From the NCBI GenBank assembly GCA_001552515.1, contig BCRI01000004.1, positions 70,884 to 94,883 of the forward strand: 24,000 nucleotides of DNA, given 5' to 3'. A program made the translations under genes and the position numbers. The stretch is from Sphaerimonospora mesophila NBRC 14179 = JCM 3151 (GTDB lineage Bacteria > Actinomycetota > Actinomycetes > Streptosporangiales > Streptosporangiaceae). Below are positions 20,274 to 24,000 of the stretch, in pieces (position 1 is the first letter of the stretch; the number at the start of each line of letters is the position of its first letter). The notes below the pieces were generated by a model, which was given only the letters and a program-made list of their open reading frames with translations, ran no database searches and was not told the DNA's origin.

Positions 20274-21032
20274 TCAGCCGCGGGAGCGGATGAACACCTC
20301 TATCCCGTCGAGCACGCGGCGCAGCCCGAACTCGAACGCCCGCTCGGGGTCGTAGGCGGCGTTGTACGCCTCGCCCGCCGCGGCCCCCACCCGGGCGGCC
20401 GTGGGATAGCGCCGGGCATCGAACACCTTCGCCAGGAACGGCGCGTGCGCCCACCACCACTGCTCGTCGGTCAGCCCGGTCTGCTTCTCCGCCTGCGCCG
20501 CCTCGACCGCGCCGCGTGCGGCGCCGTGGACGTACCCGTTGATCAGGGTGACCACCAGGTCCATCTCGATCTCGTCGAGGCCCAGGCCGTCGACCGCGCG
20601 CAGCTCGAAGTCGTACTTGGCCATCACGTTCGGGCCGAGCGGGGGCCGGCCGGTCGCCACCTGCAGCAGCCAGGGGTGCCTGCGGCACAGCGCCAGGTTC
20701 TCTCTGGCGATCAGTTCCAGCCTGGCCCGCCATCCGCCGGGCACGTCCTGCGGCGTCGGCAGCTCGCCGTAGACGGTGTCGACCATCACGTCGATCAGCT
20801 CCGCCTTGCCGGGGATGTAGGTGTAGAGCGACATGGTCCCGACGCCCAGCCGCTCGGCCACCTTCCGCATGGACAGCGCCGTCAGCCCCTCGGCGTCGGC
20901 GACCTCGATCGCGGCCCGCACGATCCCGTCGACGCCCAGGTCGGGCCGGCCCTTCCGGCTCGGCCGTTCACCCGTCCGCCACAGGATCGCCAGGCTCCGC
21001 GCCGGGTCTCCCGTGCCGCCGTACTCCGTCAT
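20274..21032 (-). CDS. TetR/AcrR-family transcriptional regulator
   Basis: 252 aa. TetR HTH: IVRAAIEVADAEGLTALSMRKVAERLGVGTMSLYTYIPGKAELI. It also has a long C-terminal ligand-binding domain. Confidence 0.9.
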   Translation of the reverse strand: MTEYGGTGDPARSLAILWRTGERPSRKGRPDLGVDGIVRAAIEVADAEGLTALSMRKVAERLGVGTMSLYTYIPGKAELIDVMVDTVYGELPTPQDVPGGWRARLELIARENLALCRRHPWLLQVATGRPPLGPNVMAKYDFELRAVDGLGLDEIEMDLVVTLINGYVHGAARGAVEAAQAEKQTGLTDEQWWWAHAPFLAKVFDARRYPTAARVGAAAGEAYNAAYDPERAFEFGLRRVLDGIEVFIRSRG

Positions 21033-21140: not shown

Positions 21141-21977
21141 TCAGCGGCTCAGACCACGCCACTTGGCCACCGAGAGCGGGAAGAAGATCAGCAGTAGCAC
21201 GACCGGCCAGACGACGGCCATGGGCAGGGCGTGCTCGGTGATCCAGGAGTGACCGGCTGCGCCGGGATTGCCGAGCAGCTCGCGCACCGCCGTGACGGTC
21301 GACGAGATCGGGTTCCAGTCGGCGATCGCGCCGAGCCACCCCGGCATGGTGGTGGTCGCCACGAACGCGCTGGACAGGAAGCCGACGGGGAACTCCAGCA
21401 CCTGCACGCCGGTGACCGCCTCGGCGCCGGACAGGGTCAGCCCGAGATAGACGCCGACCCAGACGAGCGCGAGACGCAGCAGGAGGATCAGGCCGAGCGC
21501 GGCGAGGAACCCGCCCGCCGAGCCGTACGGCCGCCAGCCGACCGCCAGGGCGGTGACGATCATGACGGTCAGCGTGAGAACCGACAGCAGCATGTCGGCC
21601 GCGGCGCGCCCGGCCAGCATCGCCCCGGCGGACATGGGCATCGAACGGAACCTGTCGGTGATCCCGCGTTCGACGTCGGCCGCCACCGCCTGCGTGGTGG
21701 CCGCGATGCCGAACAGCATGGTCATCGCGAACATGCCGGGCATCAGGAAGTCGCGGTAGTCGCCGCCGCCCGGCACCCGCATCGCGCCGCCGATCAGATA
21801 CACGAACATCAAGACGATGAGGACGTCGAAGGCGAGCGCGAAGATCACCGGGGCGGGGTCGCGCACCCAGTGCGAGACGCCGCGGAGGGTGAGGGTCCAG
21901 CCGTCCGCCAGGGCCCAGCGCAGGCTTCTCGGTGAGCCGGGCGAACCGGTCGGCGGCAGATGGGCGGCGACGGTCAT
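21141..21977 (-). CDS. ABC-2 type transporter permease (DrrB-like)
   Basis: Last 279 codons of the 584-aa track ORF: MTVAAHLPPTG...WTLTLRGVSHWVRDPAPVIFALAFDVLIVLMFVYLIGG..., with about 6 hydrophobic spans. Its ATG overlaps the ATPase stop (ATGA at 21974-21977). Confidence 0.88.
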   Translation of the reverse strand: MTVAAHLPPTGSPGSPRSLRWALADGWTLTLRGVSHWVRDPAPVIFALAFDVLIVLMFVYLIGGAMRVPGGGDYRDFLMPGMFAMTMLFGIAATTQAVAADVERGITDRFRSMPMSAGAMLAGRAAADMLLSVLTLTVMIVTALAVGWRPYGSAGGFLAALGLILLLRLALVWVGVYLGLTLSGAEAVTGVQVLEFPVGFLSSAFVATTTMPGWLGAIADWNPISSTVTAVRELLGNPGAAGHSWITEHALPMAVVWPVVLLLIFFPLSVAKWRGLSR

Positions 21978-22843
21978 GCGTTGACTTCCTTCCCGGGCTC
22001 GGCGGCCCGCTCGGACCGCGCGGAACGGCCCCCGGTGAGGTGCAGGAACACCTCGTCGAGCGTGGGACGGCGCAGCGTGAGATCGTCGACGGCGACACCG
22101 GCCCGGTCGAGCGCCCGCACCGTCTCCTGGAGCGTGCCGGTCCCGTCGGACACCTGGACGCTCACGCGGCCGGCGTCGGGGTCGACGGCCGGATCCGTCA
22201 CGCCGATCGGCGCGACGGCCCGGGCGGCCGTGCCGATCAGGGCCCGGTCGTGCACGACGAACTCGATCCGGTCTCCGCCGAGCCGCGACTTGAGCTCGCC
22301 CGGGGAGCCCTCGGCGATGACCCTGCCGTGGTCCATCACGTTGATCTGCGTGGCCAGCTGATCGGCCTCGTCGAGGTACTGCGTGGTCAGCAGCACGGTC
22401 GTGCCCCGGGCGGCCAGGTCGCGGATCGCCTGCCACACCTCGCCCCGGCCGCGCGGGTCGAGGCCCACGGTCGGCTCGTCGAGGAAGAGCACCTGGGGCG
22501 CGAGGATCACGCCGACCGCGAGGTCGAGCCTGCGCCGCATGCCGCCGGAGTACGCGCTGACCGGTTTCGCGCCGGTGCCGGACAGGCCGAACTCGGCCAG
22601 CAGCTCGTCGGCCCTGGCCGCGGCGGCCCGCCTGCCGAGGTGATGCAGCCGGCCGAACATGACGAGGTTCTGCCGCCCGCTGAGCACCTCGTCCACCGCG
22701 GCGTTCTGCCCGACCAGGCCGATGCGCCGGCGGACCTCGGCGGCCTGTTCCGTCACGTCGAATCCCCCGACCAGGGCCCGGCCGCCGTCGAGCCGCAGCA
22801 GCGTCGCGAGGATCCGTACCGACGTCGTCTTCCCGGCTACCGG
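21974..22843 (-). pseudogene. DrrA-like ABC transporter ATP-binding protein, 5'-truncated inside the Walker A codons
   Basis: Q-loop, signature YSGGMRRRLDLA, Walker B VLFLDEPTVGLD and the DrrA C-terminal domain are intact. Upstream in frame I read ...PTDKVSPEIRPRPVAGKTTSVRILATLL. Only AGKTT of G-x-x-G-x-GKT(T) remains, there is no start codon upstream of it, and an in-frame TGA lies at 22882-22880. Confidence 0.8.
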
Positions 22844-24000
22844 TCTGGGGCGTATCTCCGGGCTTACCTTGTCTGTAGGTCAAGCAAAACGCCACGAACG
22901 GGCAGGGGAAGCGCCATGGGGCTCACGGTCGATTACTGCCGGATCTCGCTCGACAAGTCCGGCGCGGCTCAAGGGGTCGAGAGTCAGCACACGGAGAACG
23001 AGGACTTCGCCGGAGAGCTGGGCCGGACGATCGAAGCGACCTACACCGACAACGACCGGAGCGCCTTCTCTGGGGTCGAGCGGCCGGAGTACCGGCGCAT
23101 GCTCGCGGACATCGCCTCCGGGCTGATCGAGTGCGTCATCATCTGGCACGCCAACCGGCTTCACCGGTCGGTGGACGAGGTCGGAGCGTTCATCCGGCTC
23201 GCTCGCGCGCACGGCGTCCGGCTCTTCTCCGTCTCGAAGGCCGGGGAGTACCGGTTGGACAAGGCGGCCGGTCGCAAGGAGCTTCTGACGGACACGGTCG
23301 AAGCCGAATACGAGAGCGGCCACCGTGGCGAGCGCGTGGCGCTCGCGCGCAAGCGGCAGGCGCGGCAAGGTGCCTACGGCGGAGGGGTCCGGCCGTTCGG
23401 CTGGGGCGTGGACACGGGACGAGTCCGGTCGGTGTGCGTCAACCCGAAGGCTCCCCCGATGGAACGCCGGTATGAGGACCGGCCGGTCCTGGACATGACC
23501 CGGCACAGCGAGGCGGAGGCGGCGGAGATCCGCCGTTGGGCGGACGATCTCCTGTCCGGCGTCTCCATGAACCAGATCCTCCGGGACCTCGCGGCGCGCG
23601 GCGTGCCCACCGTGAACGGCTCGCAGTGGAACAGCAAGACGATTCATCAGATCCTCACGCACCCCCGGACCTCCGGGCATGCCGTCTACCGTGGCGAGAT
23701 CATGACCCGGAACGCCTTCCCCGCGATCCTCCCCGACGACACCCGGGAGGCGCTGATCACGCTCTTCACGGACCCCAAGCGGAAGACCTCCCCGGGCAAC
23801 ACTCCGAAGTGGCTGGGCTCGCTCGTCTACCGGTGCGGAGTCTGTGACGACGGATCGACCATGACCGTCCGGCGAGCCAACGGCGGGGACATCGTCTATC
23901 GGTGCCGGGAGCGCGGGCACTGCCAGCGCAAACAATCCGACGTGGACGGCTTCGTGACGAGCGTCATCGTGGCGCGGCTCTCCCGGAGCGACCTTGCGGA
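22844..24000 (+). mobile_element. left edge of an integrated element (prophage/ICE/other serine-integrase island) with its att junction at about 22835-22915
   Basis: ABC ATPase homology breaks off abruptly at the Walker A codons. A lower-GC ~70-bp spacer follows (ggcttaccttgtctgtaggtcaagcaaaacgcc), and the serine recombinase gene starts immediately after, pointing inward. Confidence 0.65.
22916..24000 (+). CDS. large serine recombinase (phage/ICE integrase type); 3' end runs off the window
   Basis: Manual translation from ATG 22916 (AGGGGAA SD) gives MGLTVDYCRISLDKSG... (catalytic Ser in YCRIS) and VIIWHANRLHRSVDE (resolvase domain). It also gives GGGVRPFGWG, SQWNSKTIHQILTHPRTSGHAVYRGE (recombinase domain) and the zinc ribbon YRCGVCDDGSTMTV...YRCRERGHC. 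It is absent from the ORF track because it has no stop in the window. Confidence 0.9.
   Translation, partial: MGLTVDYCRISLDKSGAAQGVESQHTENEDFAGELGRTIEATYTDNDRSAFSGVERPEYRRMLADIASGLIECVIIWHANRLHRSVDEVGAFIRLARAHGVRLFSVSKAGEYRLDKAAGRKELLTDTVEAEYESGHRGERVALARKRQARQGAYGGGVRPFGWGVDTGRVRSVCVNPKAPPMERRYEDRPVLDMTRHSEAEAAEIRRWADDLLSGVSMNQILRDLAARGVPTVNGSQWNSKTIHQILTHPRTSGHAVYRGEIMTRNAFPAILPDDTREALITLFTDPKRKTSPGNTPKWLGSLVYRCGVCDDGSTMTVRRANGGDIVYRCRERGHCQRKQSDVDGFVTSVIVARLSRSDLA

Follow-up and report, generated by a model that had tools for sequence, protein, structure and literature searches.

A 10.1-kb element in a DrrA-type ABC ATPase gene, at its Walker A lysine codon, and the recurrence of this site among related large serine recombinases

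How did a transporter ATPase gene of an actinomycete come to lose its first codons immediately beside the gene of a site-specific recombinase? The question arises from a stretch of 24,000 nucleotides of Sphaerimonospora mesophila DNA (positions 70884-94883 of contig C4 in a 350-contig, 7.3-Mb draft genome), hereafter called the window, in which a DrrA-type ATP-binding cassette (ABC) ATPase gene, its permease gene and a TetR-family regulator gene lie on the minus strand and the gene of a large serine recombinase (LSR) lies on the plus strand. We consider it very probable that a 10,116-bp element was inserted by its own LSR into the DNA encoding the Walker A motif of this ATPase, that the exchange took place at an AA dinucleotide, and that integration at this site is a habit of the whole clade of related LSRs. 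An earlier note on this DNA had proposed that an integrative LSR element used P-loop DNA as its bacterial attachment site (attB) and split the gene, and this proposal is upheld by the recovery of both gene halves and by the restoration of the reading frame when they are joined.

The two junctions and the attachment sites

The features of the interrupted operon and of the element ends are as follows, in window coordinates unless the contig is named.

20274-21032, minus strand: gene of a TetR-family regulator, the final one in the interrupted operon (Pfam TetR_N and TetR_C_1)
21141-21935, minus strand: DrrB-like ABC-2 permease (PF01061 ABC2_membrane, E=2e-21; TIGR01247 drrB, weak)
21974-22831, minus strand: DrrA-type ABC ATPase gene, 3' part, beginning with the Lys codon AAG at 22829-22831 and ending with the stop codon at 21974-21976 (TIGR01188 drrA)
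22805-22857, minus strand: LSR-proximal junction, a hybrid of the attL/attR type, with host half …GACGACGTCGGTACGGATC and element half GATACGCCCCAGACCGGTAGCCGGG
22830-22831, minus strand: putative crossover dinucleotide AA, bases 1-2 of the Lys codon, the only sequence common to both junctions in 16/16 elements
22832-22915, plus strand: left end of the element, an arm derived from its attachment site (attP), with the DNA upstream of the LSR start; ABC-ATPase homology stops here
22916-24000, plus strand: 5' 1085 nt of the LSR gene (484 aa), start ATG at 22916, reading away from the junction; end at C4:95253 (would-be window position 24370)
C4:103829-103830 (would-be window positions 32946-32947): second AA copy, at the far junction
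C4:103965-103828, minus strand: 5' ATPase fragment, beyond the far end of the element

The minus-strand ATPase frame is open from its stop codon at 21974 up to …RPRPVAGKTTSVRILATLL. It matches profile positions 32-302 of 302 in TIGR01188 (drrA; E=8e-86) with a score of 288 bits, the truncation of the gene keeping it under the 312-bit cut-off, and it also carries the ABC_tran and DrrA1-3_C (PF13732) domains; the assignment to the DrrA type accordingly combines TIGR01188, the DrrA C-terminal domain and a DrrB-like permease partner (PF01061, TIGR01247). All paralogues in the same genome align to the fragment only from residue 15 on, the A of AGKTT (tblastn). Upstream of the homology break the frame reads PTDKVSPEIRPRPV (PTDKVSPEIRPRP), contains no start codon and meets a TGA at 22882-22880. 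In these respects the earlier description was accurate: the frame is intact from the stop to the break, as the frame itself, the paralogue alignment and TIGR01188 all indicate, the extension beyond the break lacks a start and ends at that TGA, and the gene that begins at 22916 and reads away from the junction has the Resolvase, Recombinase and (weak) zinc-ribbon domains of an LSR.

With paralogue N-termini as queries, the missing 5' piece of the ATPase gene (…AVIAEGLRKRYG…GLLGPNGAGK) was located at C4:103965-103828 on the minus strand, 10.1 kb away (E=9e-13). It reads …AVIAEGLRKRYG…DLAIPKGTVCGLLGPNGAGK and lies on the same contig and strand as the 3' part, so that the far junction with the missing N-terminal codons, which the earlier note had suggested looking for, is in place and ends in …GLLGPNGAGK. 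In gene orientation the far junction is GGC GCG GGA AAG|CCC GTT ACG GGA TTG TGG and the near junction is GGT AGC CGG GAA G|AC GAC GTC, and when the flanks are joined in silico at the Lys codon they form a single open DrrA-like frame, …GLLGPNGAGKTTSVRILATLL…. The insert comprises 10,116 bp (C4:93715-103830), of which only the first 1.17 kb falls inside the window, and its GC content in 400-bp segments is 0.61-0.72 (mostly ~0.65-0.69), whereas the flanks, at some distance from the junctions, have ~0.72-0.76. Through the insertion the ATPase gene has been separated from its promoter side and its ~50 initial codons, which presumably silences the TetR-controlled DrrAB-like exporter, with a probable loss of transporter function; judging from the joined sequence, precise excision would rebuild the gene.

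Where exactly is the gene broken? Its placement within the P-loop by the earlier note stands, and the exact point has to be moved: the true junction lies two codons deeper, host sequence resuming at the Lys AAG of window positions 22829-22831, and the codons V-A-G (GTA GCC GGG) belong to the attP arm of the element, which mimics the P-loop. From the junction to the LSR start there are 84 bp here and 78-174 bp in the relatives.

The position of the exchange can be narrowed by comparing junction pairs. Both junctions were recovered for 16 complete elements, ~6.6-20 kb in length plus one of 41.7 kb, and in all 16 pairs GxxGxG-AA leads into element DNA on the N-side, and element DNA leads into AA-G… on the C-side. 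The base to the left of AA is unlike between the two junctions in 14/16 pairs and the base to the right in 2/16; because the neighbouring bases differ in this way, AA is the sole common sequence. Strand exchange would occur at this AA, that is, at bases 1-2 of the Walker A lysine codon (GxxGxG-K-[ST]), between an attP that is dyad-symmetric about AA and an attB that would be none other than the P-loop-coding DNA, approximately CTSGGSCCSAACGGSGCSGGS-AA-GWCSACS…. When the two arms of each reconstructed attP are compared as inverted repeats, 10-19 of 22 positions agree (19 in L016), where by our own estimate ~5.5 of 22 would be expected by chance; the clearest dyad, in the Streptomyces element, is GGGCACACAGGCCATGTGTGGGG-AA-CCCCATCCATGACCTGTGTGCCC. 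The attributes of LSR attachment sites, a 2-bp core and a dyad-symmetric attP, are thus deduced from these 16 junction pairs.

Natural attP forms exist as well. A metagenome contig, L025, whose LSR is 82% identical, carries GATACGCCCTAGACCGGTTGCCGGG-AA-GCCCGATACAGGATTGTGACG, which is the attP predicted from the joined ends of the studied element, and it continues into sequence like the right end of that element; the element half of the LSR-proximal junction also matches this form. A second attP form occurs in another metagenome contig (L055). The sites and consensus sequences are given below; the attB is GC-rich and ~45 bp long overall, with a well-conserved left half of ~20 bp.

attP of the studied element, 50 bp: GATACGCCCCAGACCGGTAGCCGGG-AA-GCCCGTTACGGGATTGTGGCTTTAC
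attB of the studied locus: GGCGCGGGA-AA-GACGACGTCGG
Consensus attB, left: CGGcnTcCTcGGcCCgAACGGcGCgGGc
Consensus attB, right: GaCcACcacgnTgCGcaTccTc
Consensus attP, left: GCCccAaaccagTAgncGGG
Consensus attP, right: GcCcattAcgGgatTgtGaC

One candidate far end, an 'N-terminal' match at L077, was dropped, being an intact neighbouring ABC gene. We also noted how the frame of the orphaned 5' ATPase fragment (in this element L004:11828-11965 = C4:103828-103965, minus strand) comes to an end. Many relatives have a stop within 5-8 codons of the element arm (GK-PVTGL-stop), at a TGA contributed by the conserved arm GGGATTGTGAC. The arm of the studied element (GGGATTGTGGC) is without that TGA, and the frame continues for ~40 more codons to a stop; on these sequences, a stop near the junction would be a frequent, not a universal, feature of the right attP arm.

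An empty site was found for a related element in Sphaerisporangium viridialbum. Its flanks, separated by 16.3 kb in the host, form when joined a sequence of 602 bp, including upstream intergenic DNA, that is contiguous at 78-79% in two congeners. The comparison with uninterrupted relatives that the earlier note had proposed therefore succeeded for the S. viridialbum element in two congeners and failed for the gene in the window, which has no counterpart among 40 relatives. How many further sites would such an element find in its host? With the pattern GGN-N6-GGN-NNN-GGN-AAR-WCN-ACN (GxxGxGK[ST]T) taken to define an intact site, the source genome holds 201 sites, 33 of them encoding PNGAGK[ST]T, and the best are identical to the attB used at 39 of 48 bases.

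The same codon in many ABC transporter genes

Is this target particular to one locus? Among the LSR relatives in species genomes, one of 69% identity (in an actinomycete metagenome-assembled genome) and one of 45% (in Streptomyces sp. SID13726) each lie ~100-150 bp from an ABC ATPase gene that is cut at the same codon, and the two ATPases (GKTTTMRIILGL… and GKSTLLHCLAGIV…) are only ~30% identical to the one studied here. In four independent assemblies an LSR of 91% identity is located at AGK|STSLRMLTSLL of a 42%-identical ATPase with other neighbouring genes.

The same picture emerges from the wider survey. Metagenome loci were counted if they included 190 bp or more of DNA upstream of the LSR (n=32), and a Walker A junction was present in 26/32, four of these being decayed remnants; the rest consist of two attP forms, two ambiguous loci and two in another context. 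Within the order, 24 of 401 species genomes, from 14 genera, carry an LSR homologue (48-71% identity), and the junction is found at 23/24 of these loci (14 genera); it is also present at two of three Streptomyces loci. The non-duplicate junction loci total 52, and every one of them is broken at AA.

The genes thus interrupted differ widely. The targets of at least 100 aa (n=42) fall into 15 clusters at 50% identity: DrrA-like ATPases, several further KTTT-/KSTT-type clusters and several of KSTLL types. One LSR cluster at 90% identity (L034/35/36/46/56/57/70) reaches at least three of the clusters formed by targets of this length, and three more of its targets are too short or decayed to cluster. 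In two of its members, L035 and L036, the proximal attP arm is identical and the ATPase families are different, and LSRs at least 90% identical sit in ATPases only 25-42% identical, with different neighbours. These observations suggest that the LSR clade (~45-100% identity; Streptosporangiales-type actinomycetes and some Streptomyces) would target a motif, not a single gene, and that many ABC-ATPase paralogues could thus act as attB. The surmise in the earlier note that Walker A offers many landing sites is borne out by these numbers, with at least 15 ABC-ATPase clusters hit and 201 fitting sites in the source genome.

What are the limits of the clade? The protein database contains 421 LSR homologues at E<=1e-60, with Nonomuraea, Streptosporangium, Sphaerisporangium, Actinomadura, Nocardiopsis, Microtetraspora and Streptomyces among the named sources. 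Three distant LSRs from a class-wide scan (31-39% identity) had no ABC fragment or P-loop in their 1.5-kb flanks, which confines the Walker A habit to the closer clade. Viral contigs, isolated phages and PLSDB plasmids yielded no close relative of the LSR; the best phage match has only 32-33% identity (phiScoe3, phiCAM and some mycobacteriophages), and hence no characterised integrase belongs to the clade. At L050/L051 the LSR homologue matches only from residue 46 and adjoins a second recombinase-like open reading frame (ORF) rich in zinc-ribbon cysteines, which may represent a nested insertion.

Gene content of the element and of its relatives

The LSR contains PF00239 Resolvase (residues 5-153, E=6e-19) and PF07508 Recombinase (E=5e-12), and a weak PF13408 Zn_ribbon_recom match (E=0.0018, under the cut-off) that is accompanied by the cysteine pattern YRCGVC…YRCRERGHC. 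It matches the integrase family phrog_95 over residues 7-475 (E=3e-70), and its catalytic motif YxRxS (Y7, R9, S11) is invariant across an alignment of three LSRs. The other recognisable genes of the element lie outside the window.

L004:3502-3732 (C4:95502-95732): 76-aa gene downstream of the LSR gene, weak PHROG match, function unassigned
L004:3971-6196: P4-family primase-helicase, 741 aa (DUF3854, D5_N, DUF5906, Pox_D5)
L004:6344-7012: nuclease-like protein, 222 aa
L004:10333-10641, minus strand: GntR regulator

The primase-helicase matches TIGR01613 (P4-family primase C-terminal region) with E=1e-45, and across 400 genomes of the order it has only three distant homologues (39-42% identity). 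For one of them, in G630, the location could be compared, and it is on a different contig from the LSR of that genome; the other two genomes gave no LSR match at E<=1e-90. The small ORFs of the element (76, 126, 145, 156, 148, 118, 70 and 75 aa) had no Pfam or PHROG match except the weak one for the 76-aa gene, and none of the ORFs was recognised as a recombination directionality factor in these scans. The 76-aa gene is kept beside the closest LSRs (L019-L021, L025, L053 and L063) and is also found beside three distant LSRs (31-37% identity), in the 1.5-kb flanks of which no ABC fragment was seen; it may encode a directionality factor or a regulator. Apart from the LSR, primase-helicase and nuclease-like genes the element has no ORF longer than 160 aa. 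Neither an FtsK_SpoIIIE Tra protein nor RepSA was matched in it, and no virion gene (capsid, terminase) was matched among its ORFs. By its gene content, this copy would not count as an actinomycete integrative and conjugative element (AICE) or as a prophage, and has more the look of a satellite-like element or a small replicative island.

The relatives carry quite different cargoes. In S. viridialbum two copies (CP187232.1, near 9.57-9.58 Mb and 3.25-3.27 Mb; L066/L067 with L068/L069) are AICEs with RepSA and FtsK/SpoIIIE-type Tra, each in the Walker A of a different ABC operon on one chromosome. Their RepSA/FtsK-Tra modules are 96-100% identical, the LSRs only 53%, and the attP arms differ; from these identities, it looks as though the integration module was swapped between sister AICEs. 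A 42-kb Streptomyces element with RusA, exonuclease, methyltransferase and prim-pol genes looks like a prophage, another relative carries a Replic_Relax gene, and L118 has only a weak FtsK_SpoIIIE match. Since these backbones are unrelated, the LSR and its attP behave as a portable integration module.

Some of the interrupted genes have decayed. Internal deletions at L034 and L056 join the P-loop to the C-terminal domain, and at L040/L041 only 10 codons of the ATPase remain before a stop, so that these insertions appear to be long-lived.

Competing explanations and known systems

Could the interruption be a regulatory device rather than the mark of a mobile element? The earlier note had read it as a switch of the skin/sigK type, and if the insert were a domesticated intervening element of this kind, or like SPbeta in spsM, with a programmed excision that rebuilds the efflux ATPase, one would expect what is indeed seen: an excision product that would be intact and in frame, an intact LSR, and a target operon with its own TetR regulator. 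The insert, however, has replication genes of its own (the P4-type primase-helicase and the nuclease-like gene), its relatives comprise AICEs, Replic_Relax elements and one that is prophage-like, and no sporulation- or development-specific context was seen. Moreover, the targets of the clade belong to at least 15 unrelated ATPase clusters, not to one conserved gene, they differ between near-identical LSRs, and the decay of the interrupted genes at L034, L056 and L040/L041 is unlike the state of a gene that is regularly rebuilt. Having found ordinary mobile elements with varying and decaying targets and no evidence for a switch, we regard this explanation as very unlikely. A second alternative is an LSR of low specificity, similar to the transposase-like TnpX/TndX, that inserts semi-randomly and meets ABC genes simply because they are abundant. 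Durrant et al. (2022; PMC10083194) define a multi-targeting LSR by the presence of one 90%-identity LSR cluster in over three clusters of target genes at 50% identity, and part of this definition applies here, one such LSR cluster being found in at least three target clusters; yet 52 of 52 junctions at one codon and one dinucleotide of one motif amount to extreme site specificity, the left half of attB is well conserved over ~20 bp, and the Pfam scan detected no DUF4368, a domain present in 63% of their multi-targeting clade. Semi-random insertion is, in our view, highly improbable.

A single ancient insertion, inherited vertically while ATPase and element diverged together, would explain why L028, L030, L031 and L059 are 97-100% identical in both LSR and target. 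It is scarcely credible for the clade, in which LSRs of at least 90% identity occur in ATPases of 25-42% identity with different neighbours, two copies occupy two ABC operons of one genome, congeners retain an empty site, attP forms exist and the backbones are mutually unrelated. Equally hard to credit is an assembly artefact, or an unrelated rearrangement that placed an LSR beside a truncated ATPase gene: the genome is a draft of 350 contigs, but both junctions are internal to one contig of 129 kb, and the break recurs at the same base in dozens of independent assemblies, including complete genomes.

Insertion of the element by its own LSR at the Walker A lysine codon is thus the explanation that we retain, and several points weigh against it. 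Current activity of this copy is presumed, and the source-genome assembly contains neither an attB nor an attP form. There is no close orthologue of this drrA-like gene among 40 relatives (best 65% identity), which is why an empty site is lacking for the locus itself. The left half of attB is known for only 16 elements, and the crossover on the first two bases of the invariant lysine codon is deduced from sequence comparison. Some metagenome loci are one element sampled repeatedly (L028, L030, L031 and L059). Finally, L090 (in G468), L117 (in Streptomyces echinoruber), L027 and L038, clade members of 52-68% identity, have no recognisable Walker A junction, and may represent other targets or decayed sites.

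What would such a target offer to an element? Taking the evidence together, we lean slightly towards the broader proposition that the serine integrases of this clade have a specificity of a kind not described before, directed at a motif and not at a gene, with the ABC Walker A sequence as attB and the exchange on the AA of the invariant Lys codon, and that this module has been swapped among AICEs, prophage-like elements and small replicative islands throughout Streptosporangiales and Streptomyces. In the usual account a site-specific integrase picks a single gene or tRNA; here a clade is fixed on the DNA of an abundant and constrained motif. If this is true, functional targets cannot mutate the invariant Lys codon away, which suggests how elements could keep a target in many hosts and occupy several places per genome; lethal hits might be avoidable because ABC exporters are redundant. 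It would also mean tens of candidate sites in a high-GC actinomycete genome and thus a tool for integration without a landing pad, and an LSR whose ~45-bp attB is already present in multiple copies in actinomycetes could serve strains that lack phiC31 or phiBT1 sites.

Many LSR elements are known inside coding genes, such as SPbeta (SprA) in spsM, skin (SpoIVCA) in sigK and A118 in comK, as well as Bxb1 in groEL1 and phiC31 in a pirin-like gene. As in these systems, an LSR with Resolvase, Recombinase and zinc-ribbon domains lies beside the attachment site, attB is within a coding sequence, the crossover spans 2 bp and excision would rebuild the gene. Unlike them, each of which uses one orthologous gene, the present clade uses a superfamily-wide motif, near-identical LSRs occur in different paralogue families and no developmental control is evident; one orthologous gene that is interrupted and kept functional, as with skin and SPbeta, is not what we found, given at least 15 target clusters and decayed targets. 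The serine integrase of mycobacteriophage phiRv1 integrates into the repeated REP13E12, and there too attB exists in several copies per genome, REP13E12 being a lineage-specific repeat in contrast to the universal, constrained Walker A. Inteins and homing endonucleases insert at P-loops and other catalytic motifs; they resemble this case in that a selfish element homes to invariant-motif DNA, and differ from it in relying on protein splicing and a homing nuclease in place of conservative site-specific recombination.

With regard to element type, the relatives L066, L067 and L118 share with AICEs of the pSAM2 type an integrase, RepSA and an FtsK/SpoIIIE-type Tra set (in L118 the weak FtsK_SpoIIIE match only), and a Kor-like GntR regulator is also present in the studied element; most AICEs, however, use tyrosine integrases and tRNA genes, and the studied element has neither Tra nor RepSA. 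Its integrase and P4-family primase-helicase, without a capsid or terminase match, would be compatible with a P4-like satellite or a phage-inducible chromosomal island, types that are also defined by dependence on a helper phage. Among 144 AICEs, Ghinet et al. (2011; PMC3218068) described 19 with serine recombinases, some 'in protein-encoding genes', and named no ABC target.

A close precedent is the survey of Durrant et al. (2022), in which diverse LSRs converge on a Mg-chelatase/ComM-type ATPase gene and the idea is raised that some LSRs evolved toward sequences present at several sites per host. The text and available supplements of that paper make no mention of ABC transporters, Walker A or P-loops, and in the accessible literature, whose incomplete coverage is no proof of absence, we found no paper describing Walker A, a P-loop or an ABC gene as attB. 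Taken alone, the locus in the window is an LSR insertion of the ordinary sort; that a whole clade should choose a motif, the Walker A Lys codon, across ABC families is a new form of an already familiar phenomenon, as far as the accessible literature shows. In that survey the multi-targeting clade includes TndX-like LSRs, 63% of its members have DUF4368, and the one target logo of the main figure shows AT-rich flanks around a TT core, some other LSRs showing more complex motifs. The present clade resembles those LSRs in that many recombinases meet on a conserved ATPase gene or on targets with multiple sites, and it differs from them in having no DUF4368 and a GC-rich attB of ~45 bp that encodes a protein motif; it would provide a concrete natural case for the idea that LSRs can evolve toward multi-site sequences.

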